From an uncultured Clostridia bacterium (GTDB lineage: Bacteria > Bacillota > Clostridia > Oscillospirales > CAG-272), in assembly GCA_947302045.1 (NCBI GenBank), contig CAMYUQ010000002.1:1-58356 (forward strand): a stretch of DNA of 58,356 nt. Reading direction: 5' to 3'. The number at the start of each line of letters is the position of its first letter. Position 1 is the stretch's first letter. The notes under the pieces were generated by a model. It made no database searches, had not been told where the DNA came from, and saw nothing but the letters and a program-made list of their open reading frames with translations. The position numbers and the translations under genes were made by a program. Below are positions 1,601 to 38,840 of the stretch, piece after piece.

Positions 1601-1606
1601 GTTACA

Positions 1607-8913: not shown

Positions 8914-8935
8914 TATCTCATTGTTCTCCCTTTTT

Positions 8936-11451: not shown

Positions 11452-11469
11452 TTGAATCTGTTTCCTTTT

Positions 11470-12765: not shown

Positions 12766-12793
12766 TTTCCCTTTTTCCTTTTCTTATTTTTGT

Positions 12794-13738: not shown

Positions 13739-13813
13739 TTTCATTCCTTCTTTCCGCTTCATCCGAAATTGGCTCTATTATACCATAATTCCCGGATGAC
13801 TGCAACAGATTTT

Positions 13814-14767: not shown

Positions 14768-14787
14768 TCCGATTTCTTCTTTCCGGA

Positions 14788-15105: not shown

Positions 15106-15120
15106 TTCCATACTCCTTTT

Positions 15121-17490: not shown

Positions 17491-17540
17491 ATCATTTCTC
17501 GTTTCAAAAAATTAGAAAACGTGCGAAAAAAACTTTACAA

Positions 17541-17560
17541 ATGCGGGGGGAAGCCCGCAT
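17541..17560. terminator. hairpin terminator separating the exported-protein array from the GH2 operon
   Basis: atgcggg-ggggaag-cccgcat, with a T-run on the + strand and a T-rich tail on the minus strand. Confidence 0.55.
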
Positions 17561-17598
17561 TTTTTGCTAAAACTTCCCCCCTTGGTCATAACTGAATT

Positions 17599-17886
17599 TT
17601 AGTGCATATCAACTGCCGTTCCGAAGTCCGTCTCCGGGTCGGATTCACCGATACCGATCAGAGAAGTGTCAACGGGCTCTTGCGTTACGGGTTCCGCCGT
17701 GGTTTCCGGTTCAGCGGTCGTAACGGTCGGCTTAATGGGCTTCTTGGTGGTCACTTCTTCTTGCTTCGCAGTGGTGGCAGGTTCGTTCTTGCCGTCGTTA
17801 TTATCATCCTTGCAGGCGATCAGAGCGCAGGCAAAGAGAGCGACTAACAGCATCGCGCAAATGAGACGAATGATGGTTTTCTTCAT
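17599..17886 (-). CDS. small Thr/Pro/Glu-rich lipoprotein (95 aa)
   Basis: Signal peptide with lipobox LIAC (MKKTIIRLICAMLLVALFACALIACKDD). The remainder is low-complexity and linker-like. GGAGGAAAC SD. Confidence 0.6.
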   Translation of the reverse strand: MKKTIIRLICAMLLVALFACALIACKDDNNDGKNEPATTAKQEEVTTKKPIKPTVTTAEPETTAEPVTQEPVDTSLIGIGESDPETDFGTAVDMH

Positions 17887-17899
17887 GGTTGTTTCCTCC

Positions 17900-19648
17900 T
17901 TAGCTTAATACACCGTTGGTGAGCGTGACGGATTTCGTTGCACCGATCAGCAAACCGTCCTCATCGCTCACGGCATAAGGCGTAACTTTGAATTCGACCG
18001 TCTTGTTATCCGCAAGGTCTGCAAGCGGGATCGCCACGATGTAGCGGTCGCCGAAATCTGCTTTGGTGAGCTGAGCGGCGCCGTTGTTGACTGCTTCGTA
18101 AACCGTCTTGGTTTCCAGGAAGAAATACTCGGTCTTGCCGTCGCAGGTCTTTTCCACCATGTAGCCGACGTTGTAGTAGTTCAGGTTATCCAGACCGCCG
18201 AGGAAACGCACTTTCAGCGCACCGTCAACCGGCGTGCTTGCCTGTGCCTTCTGAACGGTGAGGTTGGTATCGGTTCCGTTGTTCTGGATGGTGAAAGCAC
18301 CGGTTCCGACCGACGTATAGGTGCTGCCCACAACAAAGACGTTCTTCATGGCAACAACGTTGGTATCCGAAGCGGTGTTGATCAGCGCCGAAGCGGTTGC
18401 GGGATCGCCTGCCTTGACGTCAACATTCGATACGACCACGCCGTCAATGTCAACGGTGTTGGTTCCTTTGCTGTTGTCGAGCCAACCGACGATCGCGCCG
18501 GCGTGACCCTGCGTGTAGTCTTTCGTAACCTCTCCGGTTTCGGAATTCACGAGGTCTTCCCAACCTTCGCCGCCGATGACGCAGGCGGTGATGAAGCAAT
18601 CTTTCACCGTGAGGTTGAGTCCGATGGTGTCGGAATAGGTGCCGATGTTACCGATCAAGCCGCCGGAAGTCACTTTTGTTTTCTTCGTACTCGGATCGTT
18701 CTTGTTCACACGGAGAACGTTCCCCATGTTGACGCAACCGTCAAAGGAGATCGTCAGCTCCTGCTCTGTTACCGGTCCTTTTGAACCCGCGTTGTTGCTG
18801 CCGCCGATGAAGCCGCCGGCAATACCATAGGAAGACTCACCGGAACCCTTTCCGATCACGCCTTCGATCGAGCCGGTATTGAGGCAATCCTCAAAGATGA
18901 TGGTCTGACCTTTTCCTTGCGTCAGGGTACCGATGAAGCCGCCCACCTGGCTGCCTTCAATTTTGCCGTTGTTGATGCATTGCTTGAAGGTGACGTTGGC
19001 ACCTCCATCCACGCATCCGAAGAAACCGCCGAGCTTATGGTTGTTTGCCGTATAGGGCGAGGAAACTTCGGTATTGTTGACGCATCCGATGAGCGTTACA
19101 GTCGCATTACTGTCAACGCCTCTGGCGAAGGAACCCCAGTAGTTTGCAACCATTCCGAAGATACGGTCGGAAATCACGTTTTCGATCACAGCGCCGTTAA
19201 GCAGAGTGGTTCCGAACACCGGAGAAGTCGTATCGAACGGCTCGGTTTCAGCCGCGTCTTTATACTGCGACAGGTAGATATTCTTCACGGTTCCGGTGAA
19301 TTCATCGAACGAGGTTCTCTGCGCATTGTAGATGGTATGACCGTTGCCGTCGAAGGTGCCGGAGAAGCCGGTCAGCATAGCGTTTTCGATATCGGTGACC
19401 ACGATATCCGCGGTCAGGTAGTATTTTCCTTTGAGCGCTTCCGCGTTACCTCTCAAAGCAACGATTTCCTCAAAGGTGCCGAGTGGGGTATAACCATCCG
19501 CGATCAGCGCCGCGGTATAAGCAGCCGATCCTGGACCGTCATCGTCCATGATCTCACTGCCAACGTCTTCTTCCGCCGCAACGTTCACAATCGTGAAGCA
19601 GCTGACGAGCAGCAGCGCTGCCAAAAGCAGACTCAAAAATTTTTTCAT
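17900..19648 (-). CDS. secreted GLUG-repeat beta-helix protein (582 aa, no EEP domain)
   Basis: Signal peptide MKKFLSLLLAALLLVSCFTIVNVAA. FSGTFDGNGHTIYN entry motif. Repeated GGF[FI]G ... C[IL]N.G units (GLUG-type). C-terminal beta-sandwich similar to the pre-EEP region of the two larger paralogues. Confidence 0.7.
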   Translation of the reverse strand: MKKFLSLLLAALLLVSCFTIVNVAAEEDVGSEIMDDDGPGSAAYTAALIADGYTPLGTFEEIVALRGNAEALKGKYYLTADIVVTDIENAMLTGFSGTFDGNGHTIYNAQRTSFDEFTGTVKNIYLSQYKDAAETEPFDTTSPVFGTTLLNGAVIENVISDRIFGMVANYWGSFARGVDSNATVTLIGCVNNTEVSSPYTANNHKLGGFFGCVDGGANVTFKQCINNGKIEGSQVGGFIGTLTQGKGQTIIFEDCLNTGSIEGVIGKGSGESSYGIAGGFIGGSNNAGSKGPVTEQELTISFDGCVNMGNVLRVNKNDPSTKKTKVTSGGLIGNIGTYSDTIGLNLTVKDCFITACVIGGEGWEDLVNSETGEVTKDYTQGHAGAIVGWLDNSKGTNTVDIDGVVVSNVDVKAGDPATASALINTASDTNVVAMKNVFVVGSTYTSVGTGAFTIQNNGTDTNLTVQKAQASTPVDGALKVRFLGGLDNLNYYNVGYMVEKTCDGKTEYFFLETKTVYEAVNNGAAQLTKADFGDRYIVAIPLADLADNKTVEFKVTPYAVSDEDGLLIGATKSVTLTNGVLS

Positions 19649-19680
19649 AATGTTTTTTCTCCTCTCATTTGTATGTTTTT

Positions 19681-21162
19681 TTACTCAATGATTCCAATCG
19701 TTCTCAAACAGTCGTTCACTTCTTTGTGTGCCAGATCCTTATCCATCGCCCAAAGAGACGCAAAGGTGTTCGTTCCCGAAACCGGAATACTCTGGTATCC
19801 GGACGAATCGGAATAACGATCCTTGAAGATCCAGGTTTTGAGCGCGCCCCAGTCGTAAACGACGCCGAGGTCGTAGCTGCTGTTGGAAAGCGCCAACGTC
19901 AGGAGCTGGTAGTCGACCTCATCCACCGAGCCGCGGATTTTGCACTTTTCTTCCACATAGAGGTGCATGAGCTTGGAGGAACGCTCGTTGAGCGCCTGCA
20001 AAGCGAACGCCGAGAAATCCGCATCCTTTGCGAAGTACGGGATCGCCATCAGACCGCTCCAAGAATAGTTCCGTGCGGCGATGTACTCTGTTTGGGTATC
20101 GGTATCGTAGATCGGGTAGGGGAAGGTGCTGTAAGTAAAGGTTGCATTGTTCTGGAAGTCGACAATGTCATCCAGCTCGCCGCTGTAGAAGAGGGCTTTC
20201 CCGTTCTTGAAAAGCTCAATTGCTTTGAGTTGGTAGACGGGATGTTTGCTGCCGGAATACCGCTGCGTCCAAGTCAGTGCGCCGTTGGCGTAGAATTTCA
20301 GGACTTCGTCGATCCAGCGGTCGGTCATTTGGAAATATGCGGAATCGTCGAAGCTGATGTGCGGGATCCCCTGATCGTCCTTCTCGGAAAACTTCATGCC
20401 GAAGCTGCAAGTCATAAAGTTAACGAATGCGCCGTTGCCGTTGTTGACCATCCCGTAGATCTCGGTATTTCCGGTCGCGCCGTCGACCCGCTTCGCCAGA
20501 TTCATCAGCTCGACCATCTTTTCCATCGTCCACTCGCCATCCAGAATGGTCTGCCGGACGTTTTCTTCGGTCAGCGATTCGAGCATATCACGGTTGCAGT
20601 AGATAACCGAGGAACCTGCTTTTTCCTGCAAGTTGAGGTCACCCGTGCAGATGAACCGATACCCGCAAATATCCAATTCGTCGTTGGATTTCTGATCCCA
20701 GCCCTTTGAGTTCCAATCGATGTATTGGAGCTGGTTAAGGTCGGTAAAAATGAAATCCAGCAGTGCGCCGTGCATATAGCCGGGCGAGTCGATCACGATG
20801 TCGAAGGTGCTCTCGCCGGTCAACGCCTCCGCACGAACCTTTTCGCTCGGACGTTCGTCCGCGCTGATGCGCGTTGTGGCGATCGAGAAGTTATACTTTG
20901 TTTCGATCTCCGCGTTTCTGGCGAACACCTCGTAGCTGATCGGCGTGGAAGTATCATCCGACGCGATCACACTTTCGAGATCGGAATCCAATTCCGTAAC
21001 CCGGAGTTCAATTCCGCCCCAATCTTTTTCAGGGAGAACAGACTCTGTGTTGGAATTGCTTGGGGTAACGGATGGCGTGTTGCTCTTCTTGTTGTCTTTG
21101 CATCCGGCAAAAACGGCAAGAAGCATCAAAACGCCGAGGAGCAGGGACAGGGCTTTTTTCAT
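19681..21162 (-). CDS. lipoprotein, extracellular solute-binding-protein-like (orphan, no cognate permease genes nearby)
   Basis: Lipobox FAGC (MKKALSLLLGVLMLLAVFAGCKD), Ser/Thr/Pro linker, about 450-aa body whose size and composition fit family 1 sugar SBPs. Start moved to ATG 21162 for RBS spacing. The SBP assignment is by general resemblance only. Confidence 0.5.
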   Translation of the reverse strand: MKKALSLLLGVLMLLAVFAGCKDNKKSNTPSVTPSNSNTESVLPEKDWGGIELRVTELDSDLESVIASDDTSTPISYEVFARNAEIETKYNFSIATTRISADERPSEKVRAEALTGESTFDIVIDSPGYMHGALLDFIFTDLNQLQYIDWNSKGWDQKSNDELDICGYRFICTGDLNLQEKAGSSVIYCNRDMLESLTEENVRQTILDGEWTMEKMVELMNLAKRVDGATGNTEIYGMVNNGNGAFVNFMTCSFGMKFSEKDDQGIPHISFDDSAYFQMTDRWIDEVLKFYANGALTWTQRYSGSKHPVYQLKAIELFKNGKALFYSGELDDIVDFQNNATFTYSTFPYPIYDTDTQTEYIAARNYSWSGLMAIPYFAKDADFSAFALQALNERSSKLMHLYVEEKCKIRGSVDEVDYQLLTLALSNSSYDLGVVYDWGALKTWIFKDRYSDSSGYQSIPVSGTNTFASLWAMDKDLAHKEVNDCLRTIGIIE

Positions 21163-21199
21163 GGACATCATCACCTTTCTTTCTTTTTTTTTAAAAATT

Positions 21200-22813
21200 T
21201 TAATCGATGTAAAGATCCGCGAGGATCGGGCGGTGATCCGAAGGATTGAAATCTTTATCCATCACTTCGTAATACTGCGCCGTCATGCCGGTGGTATAAA
21301 TGTAATCGATGATCGCGTTCTTGGAAGGAGTATCCTCACTCACGTAGGTCACAAGATTGCGGTTCACCGTTTTCACCGCTGTTTCCCGGGCGCTGGAAAA
21401 TCCCGCGTCGGTCAGGATCGATTGCTTCAATTTGCCCTCCGGCAGGTTGTAGTCCCCGAGCATTACGGCAGGCAGACCCGGATAAGTCTTTGCCATAAAG
21501 TCGACGATCTTTTGCAGCTGTGCGTTGCCCGCCGCTTCTTCGTAGTCGATGTGAATGCTGACTACCACGAATTCCACACCGCTTTCGTTGCTGCGGAATT
21601 TCGCCCAGAAGTTATAGCGGTCGTATTTGGAACCGTATTCATCGTCGGCTTTGCCGATCTGTTCGCTTCCCTTTTCGAGCAGGGTATAGCGATCCTTATT
21701 ATAAATGATCGCGTTATGAATCCCGACGGCTGCGACCGTTGCATAGGAATCTTTGTTTTTCATCTTGACCCGGATCAGATCCGAGGTTCCCGTTCCCACG
21801 CACTCCTGCACGGAAATGAAATCCGCACCCGCCAGATCCATCATCGCGGCAAGCTGCCGATATTTACCGTCGCTCGTGTTCTGCCCGGCGTTTCGGAGGT
21901 TATAGGACATGACCTTGATTTTCTCCGGGTAGACGCCGTATGCCGAAAGGTCGAGATCGGCGGCGGTATAGGAGAGTTCCTCGCGTGCGCCGACCGCGAT
22001 ATTTCCGTCGGTCGTGGCGTTCAGCCGTTCAAGCAGGATCTGGGTGGCATAGAAGAGGTCGCGGTCGTTTCCGCCGAGGTAGATCACGCCGTCCTCGGCT
22101 GTCAGGAGTGCCTGACTGCCTGCGCCGGGGTTATTCACCCCGCCGAAGTAGATGCCGTTGCCGGACGCTTCCACAGCGTCGCTCTGCACGGGTATCGCAA
22201 TTCCGCAAAGCCGAATGATCTGCTCGCGCAAAAGGTTTGCAAAGGTCTGTTCGCGGTTTTCGCGCGCGTCGGCGTAGAGCAGAACGTATTCGGAAGCCGA
22301 TACGCCGTTGATCTTGACATCGGCAAAGCGGTAGGTATGCCGATAGGTGAACTCATCCCGGTCATTGCGGAAGAACGCCGCGTCGCCGCGGTTTGCCGCA
22401 ACCGTTTCTTTGAGTTTCAGAACCGCCGCCGCCGTTGCGGCAGAAGAACCGCCGCGCACCACGAGCTTTCCGCCGTGAATTCCAACGTAATAATCGTCGT
22501 ATTTCAGGGTTTGGAAAACCTCCGCGGACTGTTGCCGGTTGGTGTTGCCGATCAGAATTTCATTCTCTCCCGGCTCGGTCACGTCATCCTCCACAACGGT
22601 CAGGAGAACGCCGAAATGCCCGTAGGCGTTTTTCACAAGCTGCGTCACCGCCGCACGCTCGTCTGCTTCCATCGTTTTGGGAACGACGATCTGATAGCCC
22701 GAGAGCGTATCCGCCGCGATCTGCGCCGTCTCGGGCGTTTTCGCGTCCGGTTTGCAGGCGGCGAGCAGGAGCATCAGCACTGCCGTGAGAAAACAGAGAA
22801 TTTTTTTGTTCAT
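21200..22813 (-). CDS. lipoprotein with duplicated N-terminal alpha/beta modules and C-terminal EEP phosphoesterase domain
   Basis: Lipobox LAAC. Two similar modules (EILIGNTNRQ...GGKLVVRGGS and GIYFGGVNNP...GVIYLGGNDRD). EEP motifs VMSYNLRN, ISVQECVG, VMLGDYNL, NPSDHRP. Confidence 0.7.
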   Translation of the reverse strand: MNKKILCFLTAVLMLLLAACKPDAKTPETAQIAADTLSGYQIVVPKTMEADERAAVTQLVKNAYGHFGVLLTVVEDDVTEPGENEILIGNTNRQQSAEVFQTLKYDDYYVGIHGGKLVVRGGSSAATAAAVLKLKETVAANRGDAAFFRNDRDEFTYRHTYRFADVKINGVSASEYVLLYADARENREQTFANLLREQIIRLCGIAIPVQSDAVEASGNGIYFGGVNNPGAGSQALLTAEDGVIYLGGNDRDLFYATQILLERLNATTDGNIAVGAREELSYTAADLDLSAYGVYPEKIKVMSYNLRNAGQNTSDGKYRQLAAMMDLAGADFISVQECVGTGTSDLIRVKMKNKDSYATVAAVGIHNAIIYNKDRYTLLEKGSEQIGKADDEYGSKYDRYNFWAKFRSNESGVEFVVVSIHIDYEEAAGNAQLQKIVDFMAKTYPGLPAVMLGDYNLPEGKLKQSILTDAGFSSARETAVKTVNRNLVTYVSEDTPSKNAIIDYIYTTGMTAQYYEVMDKDFNPSDHRPILADLYID

Positions 22814-22838
22814 TGGTATCACCCTTTCTTGGGGTTCC

Positions 22839-22867
22839 GCCGGGGGAGAGGGTTTCCCTCCCCCGGC
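22839..22867. terminator. GC-rich hairpin downstream of the EEP ORF
   Basis: gccgggggagaggg-ttt-ccctcccccggc. No clear U-tract on the minus strand. Confidence 0.35.
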
Positions 22868-22889
22868 AAATTTTGGTTTGCCCGATCTC

Positions 22890-23846
22890 TTACTTAAAGG
22901 TCAGTTGCACGTAGACCGGATAGTGGTCGGACGGGTTGTCGGTAATGGTCTTATCCTGCCAAAGCGTCTGGTAGGAGCTGTAAGTCCACTTGACTTTCGT
23001 GGTGACGACCTCATAGACCGTCTTCTCGAATTTGCCCGTCTTATAGTAGCACCAGTCGATGATCGTGCCGTCTTTCGGGAAGGTTGTGGCAAGACCGTTG
23101 TCTGCGGCAGTTCCCTCAACCCTGTCGCCCCAACCGGCGTCGCCGCCCGTGATCTTATGCGCGGCAAGGAAATCGGTGTAAGCAGTGTTGGCATTGGTAA
23201 AGCCATAGGGCTTGAACTGCCCGATGTTGACCCAGCGCGCTTCGTTGGCGTTGAGGTCGCCCATGATGATCGTGCGCGTGCCCGAAATGACGTCGCTCAA
23301 CTCGCTCATCAGGTTCGTGACCGACTGGCCGGGCTTGTTCAGGTCGCCGTGCATGGAGATCACGATGAACGCGGTTTCGTCCGATTTGCGTTTGAGCTTA
23401 ACCCAGGTTGAAACGCGGGTATATCCGTCGCCGCCGTCGGCTTCCGGAACCGTAATGTCAACCGTTCCGGAGGCGAGCTTGGTATAGAGATTTGCATCCC
23501 ACATAACGGCAGTGGTGACACCGGACGCCTGATAAACGGTATAGGTTCTCGTGCCGTTCGAGGCGCAGGCGGACGCCAGCGTGGAAGCCGAAAGACCTTT
23601 CATTTCCTGCAAGCAAACGATCTCGGGGTTTTTCAGCGCGATGGTTTTTGCAAGTCCCACTTTCCGGTCAGTGACGCTCTGGTCGTAGCTGCCTACTTCC
23701 AATTCGCCGTCTCTGACGTTGTAGGACATCAGTTTGATGGGGGTAGTTTTATCGAGGGAGTAGTTAAAGACCGTTCCCCAGGTTGGCGGACCCTGTGGAA
23801 CCAAAAGTGATACGACCGTTCGTATCCACGATGTAAGGCGTGACAT
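22890..23846 (-). CDS. EEP phosphoesterase domain ORF, an out-of-frame continuation of the upstream 794-aa ORF (see findings)
   Basis: TPIKLMSYNVRDGE..VCLQEMKG..IIMGDLNANEARWVN..NPSDHYPVYVQLTFK is colinear with the C-terminus of the 1292-aa paralogue. It overlaps ORF 23764..26148 by 83 nt in the +1 frame. No SD precedes 23846. The first in-domain Met is at 23729. Confidence 0.6.
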   Translation of the reverse strand: MSRLTSWIRTVVSLLVPQGPPTWGTVFNYSLDKTTPIKLMSYNVRDGELEVGSYDQSVTDRKVGLAKTIALKNPEIVCLQEMKGLSASTLASACASNGTRTYTVYQASGVTTAVMWDANLYTKLASGTVDITVPEADGGDGYTRVSTWVKLKRKSDETAFIVISMHGDLNKPGQSVTNLMSELSDVISGTRTIIMGDLNANEARWVNIGQFKPYGFTNANTAYTDFLAAHKITGGDAGWGDRVEGTAADNGLATTFPKDGTIIDWCYYKTGKFEKTVYEVVTTKVKWTYSSYQTLWQDKTITDNPSDHYPVYVQLTFK

Positions 23847-26148
23847 AGATCGCTCCGCCGAGATCTGCCGGAATACCGTTCAACGTTGCCGCGAAAGCGT
23901 ACTTGTCTTTGGTCTTTGCCTTTGCGTTCCAGGTTCCGAGACTGCCGTATTCGTTGAGGTTTTCGTAGAGGGTCGTTCCGCAAACATTCCAAGCTTTTTC
24001 AACGAGATCGCCGTCAACGTTTGCAACAATGCAAATGTAGAAGCCGACTTTCTCATAGTCTTCGCTGTTGTAGACCCAGTCTCTGATCGTGCTGACGAAA
24101 CGGATCTTGCGCAGCGAGCCGTCCTCATAGATAGCTTCCTGAACATATCCAACGCCGCCGCGGTTGATTGCGTTTTCCTCGTCGGTATTGGCAAAATCCT
24201 GCGCATACCGGCGATTGACGTTCAGGCCGGAGTGCCGTGAGCCGCCCCATTCTTCGGAGCCGTTCTCGGTCACTTCGTTCACAATGCAGTTGTAGGCGAT
24301 CACCGACTCTTCCGTATTGTTGGTTCCAACGCCGATGATCCGGCGCGCGATGCTGCTGCGAACGTCCACTTTGCTGATGTAGCAGCCGGCGGCAACCACA
24401 TGGAAGGTTTCGGAGGCGCCGGGCGAGCATTTACCGATCAGCGGAGCCGCGTATTCGTTCGCGCCGTTGGTATCGATCGTGCAGTTATAAACACCGCAGT
24501 TGTTCAGCGTGATCGAGAGCGTCTTGCCGGCTGCCTGACCACCCGCGAAGCCGATCAAACCGCCAATGGCGTTCTCTCTCCACGTGCCGTGATGCGCCAC
24601 CTGAATGTTGCCGGTGTTGACGCAGTTGGTCATGGTGATGGTAACGTCGCCTTGGATGGCGGAATTGTTGTTCTGGCCGCCGATAAAGCCGCCCGCAACG
24701 CCGTATGCACCTTCTGCTTTGCCCATGCCGATGATGGTGCCGCGGTTTTCGCAGTTCGTCATCGTGATGGTAACGGTGTTGTTATAGACTCCGATGAAGC
24801 CGCCCGCCTGCGAGGCGATGATGCTTGCATTGTTGATACAATCGATGAATTCAACCGTTCCGCCGTTGAGCGATGCGATGAAGCTGCCGATCTTATGGTT
24901 ATTGCCATAATAGCTATTGTTTACACTAATGTCAGGGGTCTGCCAATAGTTGCCGTTGTTGATGCAGTTCTCAAACCGAATGGTTCCGCCTGCATTCACG
25001 CCGCCAAAGAAAGCACCATAAGCACCGCCCGAACCGAGCGTAGCGCGTTCGTTCGTGATGTTCCGAAGGATCGCGGTTTCGCCTGCCTTGACTTCGGAAG
25101 CCACCAGATCTCCGCCAAAGATATTGATTTTCCCGCTCAGATTGAGCTCATTGCCGTCCGGGGCGGTTTTGTTGGAGATCGTGAAGTTCTGGAAGACCGA
25201 ATTGCCATACGGCCAGATGAGATTGCCTTGCAGGTTATAGATGGTATGCCCCTGCCCGTCAAAGGTGCCCTTGACGTAGCTTGCGGACCAGCTGCCCTCC
25301 ATGATGATATCATCAACCAGCTGAATGGTGTAGGCAGAATTGCCGCCGTAGGTGGAAACCGCCGTTTTGAGGCCGGTGTAGTTGGAAACGCTCACAACGT
25401 ATCCATCCACGCTGATCGCGGGCGTCGCGCCGGAAACTTCCTCACCGGTCACGGCGATTTCAAACAGCCACAAGCCGCCGGTTTCCTTGCCGGAAGCCGC
25501 TGAAACGGCAAAGGCAACTTGACCCGCTTCAACACCGTTCATCGGAACGGTCAGGGTTGCGAGAGAGCCATCCCAGGAAGTCCAGCTCGAGCCGCTCGTC
25601 ATGTTCGTATAGGAAGCGGCAACCGCCCAGTGTTCGCCGTCGGCACTGTAAAGAATGTCGAACGCCTTATTGGAGTCTACCTTGCTGCCGTCAGGTCCTG
25701 CCTTGATCGTGACGGTATCCAGTTCGGCAAGCGTTTCCAGCGTGAATTTGAAAACGCCGTAATATTTGCCCAAGCCGGAAGCCTGATAGGTGTCAAAGTC
25801 GACGTCCACTTCTACGTTGTCGTAAGTTTTATCCCGCACCAGTTCGCCGGACGCGTTGATATACTGTTCCGGATAATAGGACACGACGCTATAAGCACTT
25901 GTCCAAGTACTCGCATTCCCATCGAATGCGTTGGTGATCGGGTTCGTATCTCTGAGCCCATACGTATAGGCGCGCTGTTTGTAACGAGTTTGACCGTCGT
26001 TTGCCTTCAGCCAACCTTTGTAACCTTCAAAGGAGCCGGCGATGATATTGATCTGCGACGATGTTGCCGACGCCGGGACTGCGATCACGGGGATCAAGGA
26101 AAGGATCATGATCGCCGCGAGCAGAAAACTCAATAATTTCTTCTTCAT
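23764..26148 (-). CDS. secreted discoidin-like + GLUG-repeat beta-helix protein (794-aa ORF, truncated relative to its paralogue)
   Basis: Signal peptide ...AVPASA. One NAFDGNASTWT discoidin/F5-8C-like module nearly identical to that of the 1292-aa protein. GTFDGQGHTIYN, then GGFIG...C.N.G repeats and a beta-sandwich. Ends ...FGSTGSANLGNGL* exactly where the paralogue continues into its EEP domain. Confidence 0.75.
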   Translation of the reverse strand: MKKKLLSFLLAAIMILSLIPVIAVPASATSSQINIIAGSFEGYKGWLKANDGQTRYKQRAYTYGLRDTNPITNAFDGNASTWTSAYSVVSYYPEQYINASGELVRDKTYDNVEVDVDFDTYQASGLGKYYGVFKFTLETLAELDTVTIKAGPDGSKVDSNKAFDILYSADGEHWAVAASYTNMTSGSSWTSWDGSLATLTVPMNGVEAGQVAFAVSAASGKETGGLWLFEIAVTGEEVSGATPAISVDGYVVSVSNYTGLKTAVSTYGGNSAYTIQLVDDIIMEGSWSASYVKGTFDGQGHTIYNLQGNLIWPYGNSVFQNFTISNKTAPDGNELNLSGKINIFGGDLVASEVKAGETAILRNITNERATLGSGGAYGAFFGGVNAGGTIRFENCINNGNYWQTPDISVNNSYYGNNHKIGSFIASLNGGTVEFIDCINNASIIASQAGGFIGVYNNTVTITMTNCENRGTIIGMGKAEGAYGVAGGFIGGQNNNSAIQGDVTITMTNCVNTGNIQVAHHGTWRENAIGGLIGFAGGQAAGKTLSITLNNCGVYNCTIDTNGANEYAAPLIGKCSPGASETFHVVAAGCYISKVDVRSSIARRIIGVGTNNTEESVIAYNCIVNEVTENGSEEWGGSRHSGLNVNRRYAQDFANTDEENAINRGGVGYVQEAIYEDGSLRKIRFVSTIRDWVYNSEDYEKVGFYICIVANVDGDLVEKAWNVCGTTLYENLNEYGSLGTWNAKAKTKDKYAFAATLNGIPADLGGAIYVTPYIVDTNGRITFGSTGSANLGNGL

Positions 26149-26204
26149 AAGATTCGTATTTCTCCTTTATTCATTTTGCATTTTTGGGGAATTTGCGCGG
26201 GGGA

Positions 26205-26333
26205 TCATAAGTAACCTTCGTTCTTCCAGCTGATTTGCATTCCGTCGCCGGAAGTTTCGGTGGAAAGGGTCAGAATGTCTGCCTCGTCGGGAAAGAAGAC
26301 AAACACGCTGGGTTCCAGATAGGTTTTCTTCAT
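26205..26333 (-). CDS. conserved small ORF P1 (42 aa), upstream partner of the 794-aa gene
   Basis: Not in the track as a separate ORF. MKKTYLEPSVFVFFPDEADILTLSTETSGDGMQISWKNEGYL*. AGGAG lies 8 nt upstream. Paralogous to P2, with many synonymous differences. 56 nt upstream of the 794-aa gene start. Confidence 0.6.
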   Translation of the reverse strand: MKKTYLEPSVFVFFPDEADILTLSTETSGDGMQISWKNEGYL

Positions 26334-26459
26334 ACAGATCGCTCCTTTCTTAGGTCGATGAAATTTTTTATGTTCTCGCCGGATCGCGTCGGCGGGGAAA
26401 CTTGAATTTGTTTTCGGCTCGGCTTTGCGAACCGTTGACTTGCATTTCGGGAGCGCCCC

Positions 26460-26483
26460 GACCTTCCCCGCCGGGGGAAGGTC
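26460..26483. terminator. GC-rich hairpin downstream of the 1292-aa gene
   Basis: gaccttcccc-gccg-ggggaaggtc, 38 nt after the stop codon. No obvious U-tract. Confidence 0.35.
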
Positions 26484-26521
26484 AGATTCGCGCTGCCCTG
26501 CGCCTGTCGCGGCGCTTGAAA

Positions 26522-29500
26522 TTATTTGAAGGTGATCTCTGCGTAGATCGGATAGTGGTCGGAGGGGTTGTCGGTAATGGGAGAAATATACGTCCAGGTA
26601 ACCTTGCTCGTCACCGTCTGGTAATTGCTCGATGTCAGCACGTTCCCCGTGTAGTAGCACCAGTCGAGGATCCATCCGCTCTCCGGGAAGGTTGCGGTAA
26701 GCCCATTGTCGGCTGCGGAACCCATTTCTGTGGTCCACGCGTAGGGTGCATAGCCCTTGATGTTGTGCTCCGTCAGGAAATCGGTGTAAGCCGTGTTTGC
26801 GTTGGCGAAGCCGCCATCTCTCTTCATCTGCACAATATTCACCCAACGCGCTTCGTTGGCGTTGAGGTCGCCCAGGATGATGGTCGGGATGCCCTGGAAA
26901 TTGGCGTTAATGTAGTCGATCAGCTTTTCCGCGCTCGTTCCGGGTTTTTTCAGATCGAAGTGCGCTGAAACCACATAGAAGATCGCGTTATCCTCGATTC
27001 GTTTCAGTTTTGCCCAAACGCCTGTTCTCGTAAATCCGTCGCCGGTGGTGTTCTCGTCGTCGGTTACCGGCACGGTCAGATCGGCATAGCCGGTTGCCAG
27101 AGCGGTATAGAGGGTAGTGTCGTACATCAGGGCTGTGGTTCTGCCTGCCGGCTGATAAACGGTGTAGGTGCGCGTGCCGTTCGATTTGCAGGACGAGGCA
27201 AGCGAGGAAGCCGAAAGCGCGTCGCATTCCTGGAGACATACGATCTCGGGGTTCTTGAGCGCGATCGTCTTGGCAAGACCTTCTTTCCGGTTCGATACCA
27301 TCAGATCGCGCCCGCCGACTTGATATTCGCCGTCCTTGACGTTGTAGGACATGAGCTTGATCGGGGTATCATTCGCTTCGCCGAACGAGATGTCGGTGGA
27401 GCCCCTTTTGCCGAAGAGGATCGTTCCGTCGTCTTTGACGATGAAAGGAGTTGCATAGAAGGTGACGTCGCCGATATAGGCAGGAATGTCTTTCACCGTC
27501 ACCGCGTAGATCCAGGAGTCGCCCTCGTGGATCTGGCTTGCGGTTTTGGTGCTCGCAGCAGCTCCGGGCACGACGTTTTCCCGCAACTCAGCATAGACGA
27601 ATTTCGAATACATGGTCCAGCCGTGCGTCTTGGTGCCTTCGCTGTCGGTATAGGTGGCGATGATCTGATAGCCAGCCAGCGCAATATCCGAAACATCCAA
27701 GCCGAGCGTGGAAGCGAAACGGACCTTGGAAGGCATCACGCCGTTTGCCTGATCGCCGTTGTGCTGTACGAAGCCCGCCGTGCCGCCGGTGATCGCGTTA
27801 TCATCGGTCTTCTCGAAAGATTCGGACGCAGAATAACTTCTCGTGCATCCATAGTTTCTCGAACCGTTCCAGCTTTCTTTCACTTCTCCGGTTTCCACGT
27901 CGCGTTCGTTGAGGTTCACGGCAACCAGGTTGATCGCCTCTGCCGGTGTGACAAGGGTTCCGACGCCGATGAAGGCGCGCGCGTGGTCGGCACGGACGGT
28001 CACATTGCTGACGTAGGAATTTTTCGCGACGATCGTATCATGACTTCCGCGCGGGGAAACCTTGCCGAGGAAGGAGCCGGCGTATTCTTTCGATCCGCTG
28101 GTCTGACCGTAGGTATCGTCGTCGCCGACCGCGTCGATCGCGCAGTTGTAAACGGCGCTGTCATCGATCGTGATGGTATAGTAGATGTCGCTTTCCGTGC
28201 CGCCGGCATGGCCGATGAAGCCGCCCGCCGCACAGTCTTTGGAGCTATCCGCCGTATAGTTGACCTTGATATCGCCGGTGTTGGTGCATCCGGTGATCGT
28301 GATGGTGGTATTCGAGCCGACTGTGCCGGAGTTGTTGAAGCCGCCGATGAGACCGCCCGCTACGCCGTAAGCCGTACCGTTGGCAAGTCCGGTGATATTG
28401 CCGGTGTTGGTGCAGTTCGTGAGGGTGACCTTGGTGCCGGCAGCGTAAACGCCGACGAAGCCGCCCGCTTGTGAAGCAGTGATATCGCCGTTGTTGACGC
28501 AGTTCACGAATTCCACGGTTCCGGTTGCCATCGAACCGACAAAGCCGCCGATCTTATGGTTGTTGTTGGCACTGCCGGAGCCGCCGTTCTGGAGATAATC
28601 GCCGTTGTTGACACAGTTCTCAAACCGAACCGTCCCGGCAATCGTCAGGGTGGCAAAGAAGGCACCGTTCGTATTGCCCGAACCAAGCAAGGAGCGATTG
28701 TTCGTGACATTCCGGATGATCGAGGTTTCTCCCGCCATGATCTCGGAAGAAGTGGCATTGGTTCCGAACAGCGTTTTCTGACTGTTCGCCATTGTAAAGG
28801 AGGAACCGCCCGGCTCGGTCAGATCGGAGAAGATAAGGTTTTCGATCACACAATCGTGAAGCGGATAGCAGAAGTAAGCACCACTTTGGAAATTGTAGAT
28901 GGTGTGGTTGCCGCCGTCAAAGGTACCCGCGATGCCGCCCAAACTCGACTGGCTCGACATGGTAATATCGGCAGCCAGACGAATAGTCATCGACGGATCG
29001 GTACCGTACGCCGAGAACGCCGCTCTCAAGCCCTTTTCGGTTCCAACCTCAATCACCGTTGGTGCGGCGGCAGATTCTCCGGTTGCGGAGATTTCAAACA
29101 GCCACGTGCCTCCGGTTACCCGACCGGATGTGCCCGAAACCGCAAAGGCAACGTATTTTGCGACGTTGTTCCCCATCCAGACTTCCAACGTTGCGACACC
29201 ATCCTCAACCGAAGTCCATCTGGATTGCGCTTGCATCCCCTCATAGGACGCTCCCACATACCAGTTGATCCCGTTGGGACTATATAGAATGTCAAACGAC
29301 TTATGGTTGTCTACATTATCGCCGTCAAGTATTGCCTGAATCGTGACCGTTTTCAAGGCGACCGTATCATCCAGCGTAAACTTATAAACGCCATAATATT
29401 TACCGATACCGGATGTCAAATAATCATTGATATTGACGGTCGTCCCGTCACCATCATGACTGGAATCCCGGACAATTTCATTGGTCGCGTTCAAATAGAT

Positions 29501-30400
29501 TGCGGGGAAATAGTCGTTCACGCCATAAGAATAAGTATAGGAACTGGTATTGCCGTCATACGCGTACGTGATCGGGTTGGAATCTTTCAACGAGTAGGTT
29601 TCCGCACGGCGATTGCTGGCGCTCCCAGACAAGAATGCTTTATAGCCCTCGAAGGAGCCACCCGTGATCGAAACGCTCGGAGCGGAAACAACCGTTCCGG
29701 TTGCGGCAATTTCAAACAGCCACAAACCGCCGGTTTCCTGACCGGACGCAGCCGAAACCGCAAACGCAATGTGTCTTGCGCCCACGCCTTCCATCGGGAC
29801 ATTCAAGGTATAAATACTGCTTGCAAATGAATCCCAACTTGCCGGCGCCGTCATGTTCGTGTAGGATGCCGCCACCGCCCAATGAATTCCGTCCGGACTG
29901 TACAAAATGTCAAACGCTTTGTTGGAGTCCACGGCACTGCCGTCAGGTTTTGCCTTGATCGTGACGGTATCCAATTCAGCAAGACCTTCCAAAGCGAAAC
30001 TGAAAACACCGTAATATTTGCCCAAGCCGGACGCCACATAGGTGTTGAAATTGACGTCCACTTCCACATTGTCGTAAGTTTTATCCCGCACAAGCTCTCC
30101 GGACGCGTTGATATACTGTTCCGGATAATAGGACACGACGCTATAAGCACTTGTCCAAGTACTCGCATTCCCATCGAATGCGTTGGTGATCGGGTTCGTA
30201 TCTCTGAGCCCATACTCATTGGCGCGCTGTTTGTAACGAGTGCCACCGTCGTTTGCCTTCAGCCAACCTTTGTAACCTTCAAAGGATCCGCTCACGATCG
30301 AGATGGACGTCGGCGTTGCAGAAACCGGCACCGCGATTACGGGGATCAGAAGCAAAACCATGACCGCCGCGAGCAGGAAACTCAAAATTCTCTTTTTCAT
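26522..30400 (-). CDS. secreted multidomain protein (1292 aa): signal peptide, 2x discoidin-like module, GLUG-repeat beta-helix, beta-sandwich, C-terminal EEP phosphoesterase
   Basis: Start set at MKKRILSFLLAAVMVLLLIPVIAVPVSA (ATG 30400, GGAGA SD). The 37-codon upstream extension of track ORF 26522..30511 was rejected. Two NAFDGN/YAYDGN...W modules. AGTFDGGNHTIYNF. Many GGF[VI]G...C.N.G repeats. EEP motifs LMSYNVKDGE, VCLQECDA, IILGDLNANEARWVN, NPSDHYPIYAEITFK. Confidence 0.8.
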   Translation of the reverse strand: MKKRILSFLLAAVMVLLLIPVIAVPVSATPTSISIVSGSFEGYKGWLKANDGGTRYKQRANEYGLRDTNPITNAFDGNASTWTSAYSVVSYYPEQYINASGELVRDKTYDNVEVDVNFNTYVASGLGKYYGVFSFALEGLAELDTVTIKAKPDGSAVDSNKAFDILYSPDGIHWAVAASYTNMTAPASWDSFASSIYTLNVPMEGVGARHIAFAVSAASGQETGGLWLFEIAATGTVVSAPSVSITGGSFEGYKAFLSGSASNRRAETYSLKDSNPITYAYDGNTSSYTYSYGVNDYFPAIYLNATNEIVRDSSHDGDGTTVNINDYLTSGIGKYYGVYKFTLDDTVALKTVTIQAILDGDNVDNHKSFDILYSPNGINWYVGASYEGMQAQSRWTSVEDGVATLEVWMGNNVAKYVAFAVSGTSGRVTGGTWLFEISATGESAAAPTVIEVGTEKGLRAAFSAYGTDPSMTIRLAADITMSSQSSLGGIAGTFDGGNHTIYNFQSGAYFCYPLHDCVIENLIFSDLTEPGGSSFTMANSQKTLFGTNATSSEIMAGETSIIRNVTNNRSLLGSGNTNGAFFATLTIAGTVRFENCVNNGDYLQNGGSGSANNNHKIGGFVGSMATGTVEFVNCVNNGDITASQAGGFVGVYAAGTKVTLTNCTNTGNITGLANGTAYGVAGGLIGGFNNSGTVGSNTTITITGCTNTGDIKVNYTADSSKDCAAGGFIGHAGGTESDIYYTITIDDSAVYNCAIDAVGDDDTYGQTSGSKEYAGSFLGKVSPRGSHDTIVAKNSYVSNVTVRADHARAFIGVGTLVTPAEAINLVAVNLNERDVETGEVKESWNGSRNYGCTRSYSASESFEKTDDNAITGGTAGFVQHNGDQANGVMPSKVRFASTLGLDVSDIALAGYQIIATYTDSEGTKTHGWTMYSKFVYAELRENVVPGAAASTKTASQIHEGDSWIYAVTVKDIPAYIGDVTFYATPFIVKDDGTILFGKRGSTDISFGEANDTPIKLMSYNVKDGEYQVGGRDLMVSNRKEGLAKTIALKNPEIVCLQECDALSASSLASSCKSNGTRTYTVYQPAGRTTALMYDTTLYTALATGYADLTVPVTDDENTTGDGFTRTGVWAKLKRIEDNAIFYVVSAHFDLKKPGTSAEKLIDYINANFQGIPTIILGDLNANEARWVNIVQMKRDGGFANANTAYTDFLTEHNIKGYAPYAWTTEMGSAADNGLTATFPESGWILDWCYYTGNVLTSSNYQTVTSKVTWTYISPITDNPSDHYPIYAEITFK

Positions 30401-30455
30401 AAATAGTTTTTCTCCTTTTTTCAAAGTTGTTTTCGGGGTCGCGTTTTTTCCGAGA

Positions 30456-30599
30456 TCAGAAGAAGATATCCGTTCCCCAGGACGCTCCTCCTCCATTATT
30501 CTCTCCATCATATACGGTATCGATGGTGGAAAGCGTCAGGATATCCGGCTCTGCAGGGAATACTACGAATACATCGGGCGTACAGTACTGTTTCTTCAT
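30456..30599 (-). CDS. conserved small ORF P2 (47 aa), upstream partner of the 1292-aa gene
   Basis: Hand translation: MKKQYCTPDVFVVFPAEPDILTLSTIDTVYDGENNGGGASWGTDIFF*. GGAGG lies 7 nt upstream (30607-30611 complement). 55 nt upstream of the 1292-aa gene start. Confidence 0.6.
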   Translation of the reverse strand: MKKQYCTPDVFVVFPAEPDILTLSTIDTVYDGENNGGGASWGTDIFF

Positions 30600-30693: not shown

Positions 30694-30744
30694 CATCTGT
30701 GCGAAATCGCACAGATGGAAATGGGGTACCCCATTTCCTTTTTT
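30694..30744. terminator. pair of strong hairpins (insulator or terminator) between the GH130 operon and the exported-protein array
   Basis: catctgtgcg-aaat-cgcacagatg (30694-30717) and ggaaatgggg-ta-ccccatttcc (30717-30738), followed by T6 on the + strand and preceded by A6 when read on the minus strand. Confidence 0.5.
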
Positions 30745-30748
30745 CAAT

Positions 30749-32305
30749 TTATTCGGTGAACTCCACGAAAACCGCCGAATTGCCGACCATCGAAAGCTCG
30801 ATGCTCTCCTCACCGCTCTGCACGGTGGTCTTTCGGATTTTCGGGACCAGATGCGAATATTTTTCGTAGGGCGCCGGGTCGAAGCCCTCGGTCATGACCT
30901 CGGGAGAATCTTCCGACCATCTTCCCTTGGTTTCCAGCCCCCGGGCGTTGCGATCCTTTTCCCAATGCGGGAAGAAATTCGCCTCGTCGTCGATGAACCG
31001 GCATTCCGCCGTTCCCTCGCCGTCCCGCTTCTTCGTCGGCAGGGTCAGCCGCACCGTCACCGGATCGTTGAAGAACGGCCTGCCCGGTTTGTAGTTATAC
31101 ACCATGACGAGCGTTTTGCCCTTGCCGTCGGTCGCCGCGATGCTATGCACCCGGAAATCGGTCGACGTCATGCGCAGGATGCTTTTTTCATCTGCGTCCG
31201 GGTCGCTCTCCACCTGCGTCATGCCCACCATGCGGTAGTAGTTTTCCGCCATGTGCGAACCGAGCGACTTGATGCCGCCCATCAGCCCGCCCGAACGGTA
31301 GCTCCACGCCGCGAAATAGTCGACGTTGAAATTCACCATCTGCCAGAGCAGGTCGGCGTCCATTGCCGCTTGATAACGGTAGCCCACCGTGCGCGGAGAA
31401 AGCTCCTTGCCGTCCAGCCCGCTGTTCACTCTGCCTTCCTCGCAGGTGAGCGGCAGGTTTTCCAGCCCGTATTTTTTCGCCTTTCTGCGGATCAGGTTCG
31501 CGATCTGCGCCAGCGTCATTGTGCATATACTCGCCGGCGTCGCGTCGTAGAACGAAAAGCCCATGTAGTCGAGCTTCACCCGCTTGCCGTTTCTCGCGTT
31601 GCGATCCTGCGCGCAGTGGCGGATGAATTCCTCGGGTTCAAACACGTTCAGCTTCACGATCTCGCGCATCATCATCGCGTGCGCTCCGACGATCACGTCG
31701 TCGCCGAGCGAATCGGTGATCGCCGCAACCGTGTTGTCGTAGATCTCGCAAAAGATCTTGCCCGCCGTTGCCGGATCCTCGGAAGCTTTGAACCATTCCT
31801 TGTTCTCAAACTCCGTAAAGCACCCCCATCTCCACGTCCGAACCTCTTCGATCCCGAACTTTTCTTTGAGTGCCTCGCAGAGCGCATATATATAATTGTA
31901 GTAATCGTCCATCCGTTCCGGGGGGTGCGAGTTCACTTCAAACCGCGCGATCACCGGGTCCGCCGAGAATTTGAGCGGGATGCTCCCGGTTTTGAGAAAG
32001 GGCTTCGCGCCCAGCCGCAGAGCGTTTTCGCAAGCGGTCAGAAGCTGGGTAAAATCGTAATCGTCCATCACCGTGCGGTCGAGCGGATCGCGGAAAAGGT
32101 CTCTCCCCTCGTTTCCGCCGGTCGCCGTCATAAACTGGACGCGCTCAATAAACGGATTGTCGCGCTTGACCTGCCCGTCCTCGCCGCGGCCGAGAAAGCT
32201 CTCGCGGTAGTCCCAGATGCAGATCGTGCTGACTTTATTATTTAATGTACGGATTTTCTTTTCGGGATTCACCCGGATATCATAGGTTTTCATTTTTCCA
32301 GGCAC
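30749..32305 (-). CDS. putative TIM-barrel glycoside hydrolase (GH39-related), low confidence
   Basis: 518 aa, no signal peptide. VRTWRWGCFTEFENKEWF sits where clan GH-A enzymes carry the W.xWNEP acid/base motif, followed by (V)IVGAHA as in GH39. Overlaps and is probably coupled with the GH130 gene. Start is 32305 or 32293. Confidence 0.4.
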   Translation of the reverse strand: MPGKMKTYDIRVNPEKKIRTLNNKVSTICIWDYRESFLGRGEDGQVKRDNPFIERVQFMTATGGNEGRDLFRDPLDRTVMDDYDFTQLLTACENALRLGAKPFLKTGSIPLKFSADPVIARFEVNSHPPERMDDYYNYIYALCEALKEKFGIEEVRTWRWGCFTEFENKEWFKASEDPATAGKIFCEIYDNTVAAITDSLGDDVIVGAHAMMMREIVKLNVFEPEEFIRHCAQDRNARNGKRVKLDYMGFSFYDATPASICTMTLAQIANLIRRKAKKYGLENLPLTCEEGRVNSGLDGKELSPRTVGYRYQAAMDADLLWQMVNFNVDYFAAWSYRSGGLMGGIKSLGSHMAENYYRMVGMTQVESDPDADEKSILRMTSTDFRVHSIAATDGKGKTLVMVYNYKPGRPFFNDPVTVRLTLPTKKRDGEGTAECRFIDDEANFFPHWEKDRNARGLETKGRWSEDSPEVMTEGFDPAPYEKYSHLVPKIRKTTVQSGEESIELSMVGNSAVFVEFTE

Positions 32306-38811: not shown

Positions 38812-38840
38812 ATATCGTGAGCCCACCGCTGTGGACTCAT

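Follow-up and report, generated by a model that had tools for sequence, protein, structure and literature searches.

An array of exported proteins with sugar-phosphatase-like domains in a rumen bacterium, with one such domain in a second reading frame and probably attached by programmed ribosomal frameshifting

We analyzed a 58,356-nucleotide stretch of contig CAMYUQ010000002.1 (assembly GCA_947302045.1, from an uncultured Clostridia bacterium; hereafter the window), and found that it carries a conserved block of exported lectin-plus-beta-helix proteins tipped with sugar-phosphatase-like EEP domains. In one of these genes, and in many relatives, the EEP domain lies in another reading frame behind a "shifty stop" of the type found in release factor 2 genes, and is therefore probably attached by programmed ribosomal frameshifting. 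The features of the block and its flanks, all on the minus strand, are as follows.

30749..33207 (-): upstream cytoplasmic pair, a GH130 beta-mannoside-phosphorylase-like gene (32290-33207) and a GH39-like gene (30749-32305), conserved as a pair in every related locus.
30695..30738 (-): tandem hairpin between the GH39-like stop codon and P2, without a U-tail on the coding strand and with no known role.
30455..30598 (-): P2, a 47-aa small ORF with its own Shine-Dalgarno sequence and no signal peptide, from a tiny family that precedes every big gene of this kind.
26522..30400 (-): 1292-aa exported protein with a signal peptide, two CBM32-like modules, a GLUG/M26_N-related beta-helix, a beta-sandwich and an in-frame BT3783-like EEP domain.
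26205..26333 (-): P1, a 42-aa small ORF and paralogue of P2.
23764..26148 (-): 794-aa zero-frame ORF with a signal peptide, one CBM32-like module, a beta-helix and a beta-sandwich, ending in GNGL and a stop.
23763..23769 (-): CUU UAA C heptamer, the proposed +1 programmed frameshift site (prfB-type shifty stop).
22890..23765 (-): +1-frame continuation of 291 codons, consisting of a linker (NYSLDKTTPIKL) and an intact EEP domain, which together with the 794 aa gives a conceptual 1085-aa product; the EEP ORF itself spans 22890-23846 and overlaps the 794-aa gene.
21200..22813 (-): lipoprotein with two GH20b-like N-terminal modules and an EEP domain.
19681..21162 (-): divergent family-1 solute-binding-protein-like (SBP-like) lipoprotein.
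17900..19648 (-): 582-aa exported protein, possibly lipidated, with beta-helix and beta-sandwich, but without CBM32 or EEP.
17599..17886 (-): 95-aa Thr/Pro/Glu-rich lipoprotein, conserved in relatives.
17539..17562 (-): hairpin followed by a U-run, a plausible terminator after the 95-aa gene.
8206..17490 (-): downstream cytoplasmic genes of the same locus, namely GH2 (beta-galactosidase-like), rhaM, two GDSL esterases, a GH39-like gene, a GH127-like gene, a 265-aa EEP and a PHP phosphoesterase.

The observation behind the original prediction, that of a hairpin-bracketed run of exported products within a string of cytoplasmic enzyme genes, was confirmed, as all ORFs, frames, motifs and hairpins were found where they had been described. 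Signal peptides or lipoboxes are present on the seven larger products and absent from the flanking enzymes. Both hairpin sites fold: the site at 17539-17562 at -13.3 kcal/mol (z -2.45), with the U-run lying distally, and the tandem hairpin at 30695-30738 at -28.7 kcal/mol (z -6.2). The two discoidin-like modules of the 1292-aa protein are 51% identical, and the 582-aa protein is homologous to the helix plus sandwich of the 794-aa protein (E 9e-31). Some details deviated from the earlier description. P1 and P2, which had been listed among the exported products, have no signal peptide, so that there is no evidence for their export; the duplication in the N-terminus of the EEP lipoprotein is invisible to BLASTP and appears only between profiles (hhalign 94.7%); and the 582-aa protein has a lipobox-like LVSC. 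The G+C content does not deviate across the block.

The interpretation, a lectin-targeted extracellular phosphodiester-cleaving system inserted in a glycoside hydrolase block, was supported only in part. Pfam searches, structure prediction and a search for characterized homologs had been named in advance as the grounds on which the prediction would stand or fall, and most of the domain assignments held. The EEP domains pass Pfam, scoring 35 bits against a cutoff of 24.5, and the SYN / QE / GDxN / SDH signature, which had been taken to indicate active enzymes, is invariant in all EEP copies. The best PDB matches of the EEP profile are 3l1w, 3g6s and 3mpr/4c1r, the last being the Bacteroides mannose-6-phosphatase BT3783, and Foldseek with an AF2 model likewise ranks 3mpr/4c1r first (E 7e-14). 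The nearest characterized EEP is a sugar phosphomonoesterase rather than DNase I or sphingomyelinase, so that the cleavage of phosphodiesters is possible, but not the default. The N-terminal modules have a predicted lectin-like CBM32/F5-8C fold (probability 1.0, TMt 0.6-0.76), although Pfam F5_F8_type_C scores below its gathering cutoff (24 against 28 bits). Pfam GLUG does not hit the helix, even at E<=10, and the helix is only remotely homologous to GLUG/M26_N beta-helices (hhalign 97.3% to a protein carrying Pfam GLUG and M26_N). No LPXTG or SLH anchor was found, in line with the original prediction, and no named or characterized homolog turned up among 5.8 billion proteins.

The proposed insertion was not supported. 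In a survey of related genomes, which had likewise been suggested beforehand, the whole order GH130, GH39-like, small ORF, big proteins, lipoprotein-EEP, SBP-like, 582 aa, 95 aa, GH2, rhaM, GDSL was found to be conserved, recurring in at least six rumen Clostridia assemblies. The EEP part of the 794-aa paralogue had been described simply as out of frame; what was missed is that this is not a defect, but a conserved recoding-type junction.

The 794-aa ORF ends in CUU UAA C, and the intact EEP ORF follows in the +1 frame. The window and all 9 +1 junctions found in related loci read CUU UAR C, while members with no EEP ORF downstream end differently. The conceptual 1085-aa product is colinear with the in-frame 1292-aa paralogue, aligning to it as one HSP across the junction (E 5e-115), and split and fused orthologs differ at the junction without any change in length (FG-SL/S-DT, where the slash stands for the break, against FG-EAN-DT). 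Split and fused forms interleave in the EEP tree, and the split EEPs keep every catalytic residue. In the predicted structure, strand 1 of the EEP fold is IKLMSYN, and thus begins 3 residues before the only ATG, which is not preceded by a Shine-Dalgarno sequence. Among 25 genes of the window, this is the only stop followed by C, and TAG is never used; in relatives, 4 of 57 ordinary stops are followed by C. CTT accounts for 16% of Leu codons. The +1 junctions may share ancestry or gene conversion, however, and are therefore not 9 independent observations. In addition, 2 more distant members (L076 and L078) have the EEP in the -1 frame behind X_XXY_YYZ heptamers (U_UUU_UUC, A_AAC_CCU), each with GGAG 9-10 nt upstream, and one of these, L078, has no usable start codon before the catalytic Asn.

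We compared these junctions with known recoding sites. The prfB motif is described as CTT_TGA_C / YTT_TRA_C, and the junctions share with it a CUU immediately before an in-frame stop followed by C, a continuation in the +1 frame, and a stop context that is unusually weak for the genome. In contrast to prfB, the stop is UAA or UAG rather than UGA, the site lies about 800 codons into a secreted-protein gene at a domain boundary, and there is no obvious autoregulatory logic. The AGGGGG Shine-Dalgarno stimulator 3 nt upstream is absent from the commonest junction class (-3.3 kcal/mol), and in the window it is only G-rich and mis-spaced (-6.2 kcal/mol, which 18% of background windows reach). No stable downstream RNA structure accompanies the +1 sites. 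The -1 junctions resemble the frameshift sites of dnaX and IS elements; dnaX uses a Shine-Dalgarno-like element about 10 nt upstream of A_AAA_AAG, and in L076 and L078 the heptamers form the last 2 sense codons. They differ in that the heptamers abut a stop codon and that only one of the two has a notable downstream structure. This type is not present in the window itself.

As alternatives to frameshifting, we considered that the 794-aa protein and the EEP may be separate products, with ribosomes terminating at UAA and reinitiating at the nearby ATG, which would make a signal-less cytoplasmic EEP next to a purely binding or structural surface protein. Indeed, an ATG (the Met of MSYN) follows every +1 junction within 10-35 nt, gene callers annotate EEP genes of 275-285 aa there, and other stand-alone cytoplasmic EEPs exist in the locus, so that reinitiation is not excluded at these junctions. 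We nevertheless consider it unlikely, since no Shine-Dalgarno sequence precedes the ATG while neighboring genes have strong ones, the Met is equally conserved inside the fused paralogues, the codons between the stop and the ATG are conserved as protein and align to the fused linker, and strand 1 of the fold would be truncated. In addition, this model does not explain the invariant CUU, stop and C, and it fails for L078. A plain frameshift mutation or an assembly error, leaving a decaying pseudogene, would fit the out-of-frame overlap of the two ORFs, and its loss could be tolerated given the in-frame paralogue next door. This is very unlikely, however, as the same arrangement appears in independent assemblies from different samples and hosts, the split EEPs retain all invariant catalytic residues and are 58-72% identical to each other, no stop interrupts the +1 frame, and the T-run is only 3 bases long, making slippage or homopolymer error unlikely.

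With regard to function, the EEP domains could instead be extracellular nucleases or lipid phosphodiesterases acting on eDNA, sphingolipids or inositol-phosphoceramide head groups, with the array serving biofilm or host-surface interaction. The EEP superfamily includes DNase I, sphingomyelinases, TDP2 and PDE12, which appear lower in the structural hit list, DNase I also appears at E~4e-3 in the profile search, and the beta-helix superfamily is common in giant Firmicutes surface proteins: a profile search of a representative library gave 15,751 matches at E<=0.001, many of them multi-repeat giants. We regard this reading as unlikely, considering that the best sequence and fold matches are the BT3783 group, and that the genes are embedded, with conserved synteny, among GH130, GH2, GH39-like, esterase and mutarotase genes and CBM32-like modules.

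BT3783 and BT2630 are EEP-family mannose-6-phosphatases of the yeast-mannan PULs of Bacteroides thetaiotaomicron (PDB 3MPR, 4C1R; Cuskin et al. 2015, PMC4978465). Like the domains found here, BT3783 has the Mg-dependent EEP signature, is encoded in a glycan-utilization locus and acts outside the cytoplasm; the same PUL reportedly also holds a GH130, and the GH130 of our locus is closest to beta-mannoside phosphorylases. BT3783 is, however, a stand-alone protein of about 300 aa in a Gram-negative Sus-type PUL, whereas here the domain is only 15-19% identical and sits at the C-terminus of a CBM32-helix-sandwich protein in a Gram-positive organism, without an alpha-mannan GH76/GH92/GH38 set. The substrate assignment rests on this low identity and on gene neighborhood, and the window holds no ABC permease or regulator. 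The helix shares the entry motif GTFDGxGHTIYN and repeated GGF[IV]G turns with the GLUG / Peptidase_M26_N helices of IgA1-protease-like and giant Firmicutes surface proteins, but no close solved structure exists, the best hits being generic right-handed beta-helices such as those of phage depolymerases. The CBM32-like modules match many CBM32 structures, but are about 200 aa long with large insertions, and their ligand is not known.

Taken together, we propose with moderate confidence that the segment is the exported arm of a conserved glycan-utilization locus specific to rumen Clostridia. Our analysis shows the domain identities, export signals, synteny, recoding-type motifs and colinearity, while the frameshifting itself and its efficiency, the substrate, and the division of labor between the proteins are inferred, in the absence of enzymatic, expression, proteomic or reporter data. 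In this view, the large secreted proteins recognize a glycan through their CBM32-like lectin modules, and a long GLUG/M26_N-type beta-helix and a beta-sandwich present a BT3783-like Mg-dependent EEP phosphoesterase, which removes phosphate, or cleaves a sugar-phosphate bridge, on a phosphorylated polysaccharide that probably contains mannose. The lipoprotein EEP and the solute-binding-like lipoprotein would act at the membrane, after which the cytoplasmic GH130 phosphorylase, GH39-like enzymes, GH2, esterases, a further EEP and a PHP enzyme would finish the imported fragments. While the EEP domain of the 1292-aa gene is in frame, that of the 794-aa gene would be reached by a programmed +1 frameshift: with CUU in the P site and the poorly terminating UAA-C in the A site, tRNA-Leu would slip onto UUU and decoding would resume at AAC. 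The gene would therefore yield a 794-aa non-catalytic form and a minor 1085-aa catalytic form.

To establish whether the gene array was as described, we first re-examined the minus strand between 17599 and 30598. It carries exactly the ORFs listed in the original prediction, so the observation itself held, while the interpretation attached to it was partly supported. The features of this stretch and its surroundings that are referred to below are as follows:

1376-1452, a tRNA-Met gene
1603-1852, plus strand, a T-box leader (Rfam, 112 bits) upstream of a PLP-dependent enzyme gene at 1941-3314
8206-33207, the extent of the locus in the window
8206-9733, minus strand, a signal-less 265-aa EEP (WNIGHF … GDWN … SDHY) and a PHP-family phosphoesterase, which close the locus
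17539-17562, the 3' hairpin, -13.3 kcal/mol
17900-19648, minus strand, the 582-aa helix protein
23763-23769, minus strand, the CTT TAA C junction at the end of the 794-aa ORF
26205-26333, minus strand, the small ORF P1
26522-30400, minus strand, the 1292-aa gene with its EEP in frame
30455-30598, minus strand, the small ORF P2
30695-30738, minus strand, a tandem hairpin between the GH39-like gene and P2, -28.7 kcal/mol (z -6.2)
38726-38915, tRNA-Tyr and tRNA-Thr genes

Signal peptides or lipoboxes are present on the 1292-, 794-, 582- and 95-aa products and on the two lipoproteins, while the flanking enzymes have none. The N-terminus of the 582-aa protein has a lipobox-like LLLVSC (LLMGC in the orthologue from the related locus L001), and it may therefore be a lipoprotein rather than a freely secreted protein. 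P1 and P2 have Shine-Dalgarno sequences but no signal peptide, so that the export attributed to them in the original prediction is unproven. They belong to a tiny unannotated family of 34 proteins of 39-70 aa among 5.8 billion (consensus MKKtYxxPxVxVFxPxxxDILTLS…G…W..EI), one copy of which sits directly upstream of essentially every big CBM32-helix gene in relatives. Searches with Pfam and NCBIfam gave no match for either, and they could be a cofactor, a chaperone or a regulatory leader peptide. Of the two hairpin sites, only the one at 17539-17562 looks like a terminator. The very stable tandem hairpin has no U-tail on the coding strand, and could be a processing or attenuation site, or a bidirectional terminator remnant. 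An Rfam scan of the window gave nothing in the region.

For the domain assignments, the original prediction had proposed searches with three Pfam models, together with structure prediction and Foldseek, as the grounds on which it could fail, and these were run. The EEP model (PF03372, cut-off 24.5 bits) matches the 1292-aa protein at 35.2 bits and the out-of-frame (+1) ORF at 35.7 bits. The lipoprotein scores 24.0 bits, just below the cut-off, but has PDB EEP hits at 2e-9. The SYN, QE, GDxN and SDH motifs are invariant in an alignment of 11 copies, including the split ones, and the fold was confirmed by modelling. A profile of these domains hits 3mpr/4c1r with E-values of 5e-7 and 1e-6, with 3l1w and 3g6s scoring higher and DNase I reached only at E~4e-3. 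An AF2 model of the C-terminal 459 residues (pLDDT 75, and about 90 in the EEP core) has 3mpr/4c1r as its best Foldseek match (E 7e-14, 15% identity), followed by PDE12, nocturnin and TDP2. 3MPR/4C1R is BT3783, a phosphatase acting on phosphorylated mannose in the Bacteroides thetaiotaomicron mannan PUL, and by sequence and by structure we consider it the closest solved relative. Activity on mannose-6-phosphate-bearing glycans was not assayed.

The second model, F5/8 type C (PF00754), was not matched at its gathering score (24.4 and 20.3 bits against a cut-off of 28.2). However, the AF2 model of the 794-aa protein (pLDDT 87 overall, and about 90 in the module) shows an N-terminal CBM32/F5-8C fold, with Foldseek matches to 7blg, 2j7m, 2j1a and 7d2a at probability 1.0 and TMt 0.69-0.76. 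The two modules of the 1292-aa protein are 51% identical. The third model, GLUG (PF07581), gave no hit even at E<=10 on the isolated helix regions. The predicted central region is a right-handed beta-solenoid with no close solved relative: comparison of the helix domain with PDB and BFVD returned only generic right-handed beta-helices with poor TM-scores, so no enzymatic assignment is possible. The family profile nevertheless aligns with P0052, a protein that carries GLUG (60 bits) and Peptidase_M26_N (38 bits), at an hhalign probability of 97.3% (E 2.6e-11), and an exhaustive profile search found 15,751 relatives of the repeat, many of them giant surface proteins. No SLH or LPXTG-type anchors were found by the searches made for them, and NCBIfam gave no useful name for any of the seven products.

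The 582-aa protein consists of helix plus sandwich only, and the two N-terminal modules of the lipoprotein are related only at profile level. The SBP-like protein appears to be a divergent SBP_bac_1: the window protein has no hit to PF01547, but two of six orthologues match (best E 3.3e-6), a mixed outcome that leaves its membership of family 1 undecided. PDB sequence searches gave no hits for the 582-aa protein, the SBP-like protein, the 265-aa EEP and the GH127-like protein. As to whether close homologues already have a defined function, which had been named as a point against the original prediction, only a few dozen proteins share the full architecture in searches of 5.8 billion and 1.8 billion proteins, and none is named by any source. 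The loci whose source could be read come from ruminant-gut samples.

A survey of related genomes for the same synteny, likewise suggested beforehand, showed that the block is not an insertion in a glycoside-hydrolase block, as had been claimed. The order GH130, GH39-like, small ORF, big protein(s) with or without EEP, lipoprotein-EEP, SBP-like, 582-aa-like, 95-aa, (EEP), GH2, rhaM, GDSL recurs in assemblies from several samples, including water-buffalo rumen. The contigs for two further entries, P0004 and P0019, were not part of this comparison. A reading as a horizontal insertion was rejected because G+C is flat across the block and synteny is conserved. The GH130 is closest to beta-mannoside phosphorylases (TM1225, RaMP2, UhgbMP and Lin0857) and the GH2 is closest to beta-galactosidases, while the cytoplasmic 265-aa EEP and the PHP phosphoesterase suggest cytoplasmic dephosphorylation of imported fragments. 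Glycoside hydrolases, esterases and an SBP-like lipoprotein are present, but no sugar ABC permease or regulator lies in the window, and these observations do not settle whether the locus qualifies as a Gram-positive polysaccharide-utilisation locus. An AraC-type regulator flanks the locus in the related loci L003 and L073. In both, relatives carry an extra protein that is absent from the window (L003 2153-3781 and L073 841-3159), next to a second lipoprotein-EEP and SBP-like pair and the AraC-type regulator. In L003 its sequence shows discoidin-like NAIDGN motifs and a C-terminal hydrophobic anchor.

We next examined the EEP that lies out of frame behind the 794-aa ORF. This ORF ends GGT CTT TAA C, and the EEP ORF is open in the +1 frame from that point for 291 codons. 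In relatives most big genes are split in the same way, and all nine +1 junctions found there read CTT TAA C or CTT TAG C, even though the flanks differ (CTGGGGARCGGK in one class and TCGKTCGGCAGT in the other). Family members without a downstream EEP end differently. A nucleotide alignment of split and fused genes shows no length change at the junction apart from the one extra base, with the fused form reading FG-EAN-DT and the split form FG-SL|S-DT. The conceptual 1085-aa product, with ITFGSTGSANLGNGLNYSLDK as its junction peptide, aligns with the 1292-aa paralogue as one HSP across the junction (E 5e-115). In addition, the stop context is unusual. Among 25 minus-strand genes between 8206 and 45158, stops are TAA in 16, TGA in 9 and TAG in none, and the base after the stop is A in 17 and C only once, at this junction. 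In relatives 4 of 57 ordinary stops are followed by C and one uses TAG, giving a background of 4 of 81 ordinary stops followed by C. CTT makes up 16% of Leu codons.

CUU followed by a stop and C is the prfB +1 frameshift heptamer, which is described as YTT_TRA_C or CTTTGAC with an upstream AGGGGG. The correspondence is not complete: the stop is UAA in the window and UAG or UAA in relatives, rather than UGA, and no downstream stimulatory RNA structure was found for the +1 sites. A Shine-Dalgarno-like stimulator 3 nt upstream of CUU is only approximate in the window, where GGGGAACGG gives -6.2 kcal/mol. The L001_788 junction of a related locus gives -8.2 kcal/mol, but the commonest class, TCGGTCGGCAGT, gives only -3.3 and lacks the prfB-type element, so that this feature speaks neither clearly for nor clearly against a prfB-type site. 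The +1 junctions may not be independent of each other, no frameshift product has been demonstrated, and there are no expression data. Two more distant members have the EEP in the -1 frame, with their last two sense codons forming X_XXY_YYZ heptamers: AAT TTT TTC TGA in L076 (9746-9755) and CAA AAC CCT TAA in L078 (3507-3516). GGAG lies 9-10 nt upstream of each, and L076 also has a -26.5 kcal/mol structure (z -2.5) just downstream. In L078 no start codon precedes the catalytic Asn, yet the 256-aa EEP is intact and colinear with fused homologues. In an EEP tree the +1, -1 and fused forms interleave, which implies at least four transitions. The orthologue of the window's in-frame 1292-aa gene is split in a related genome (L001 5685-9594; 1013 aa, then CTT TAG C, then the EEP), and its EEP groups with those of the 794-type genes, which suggests recombination among paralogues.

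Several alternatives to this reading were weighed. Ribosomes could terminate and re-initiate to produce a cytoplasmic EEP, but strand 1 of the predicted fold (IKLMSYN) begins before the only ATG, and that ATG has no Shine-Dalgarno sequence. The junction could also reflect a decaying pseudogene or an assembly error, against which the split EEPs keep every catalytic residue. Transcriptional slippage was rejected for the window because the T-run is only three bases, and stop-codon readthrough or pyrrolysine at UAG was rejected because the EEP is in a different frame. With regard to function, a nuclease or lipid-phosphodiesterase activity and a purely adhesive role were considered as rivals.

We propose that the exported CBM32-helix-sandwich proteins bind a phosphorylated glycan and present a BT3783-like phosphoesterase, that the lipoprotein EEP and the SBP-like lipoprotein act at the membrane, and that cytoplasmic GH130, GH39-like, GH2 and GH127-like enzymes, esterases, a further EEP and a PHP enzyme complete degradation. 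For the 794-aa gene, ribosomes would mostly terminate, while a fraction would shift +1 at CUU_UAA_C and append the EEP. We consider a role in glycan utilisation likely and programmed frameshifting nearly as likely, whereas a mannose-phosphate-type substrate is only a tentative suggestion. The components are of known kinds (the EEP phosphatase of a glycan locus, CBM32, the GLUG-type helix and prfB-like recoding). Their combination is new, as is the recurrent use of recoding-type junctions at one domain boundary of a secreted enzyme family. We found no description of it in the searchable literature, and searches for frameshifting in secreted CBM-bearing enzymes found nothing relevant.

A broader reading, which we regard as about as likely as not, is that a family of secreted multidomain enzymes in rumen Clostridia routinely uses programmed ribosomal frameshifting at one domain boundary, with at least three different signals (+1 at CUU_UAR_C, -1 at U_UUU_UUC and -1 at A_AAC_CCU) gained and lost repeatedly relative to in-frame fusions. 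Their effect would be to set the ratio of a non-catalytic lectin/beta-helix isoform to an isoform carrying a C-terminal phosphoesterase. This would be a rare cellular +1 frameshift outside prfB, from which bacterial programmed +1 frameshifting is essentially known, and an example of recoding used to tune the composition of an extracellular glycan-degrading apparatus. A second gene family with the same heptamer would give recoding research a natural comparative system, because it also has sister genes that use -1 heptamers or plain fusions at the same position, and it would warn annotators that "split" or "pseudogene" calls in such loci hide full-length enzymes. The architecture of CBM32-like module, beta-helix, beta-sandwich and EEP has no characterised member, and the only biochemical precedents we found are the Bacteroides BT3783 and BT2630 phosphatases. 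On the ecological side, the locus points to a rumen niche based on phosphorylated glycans, for example fungal or yeast phosphomannan, protozoal phosphoglycans, or phosphodiester-linked bacterial wall polymers.
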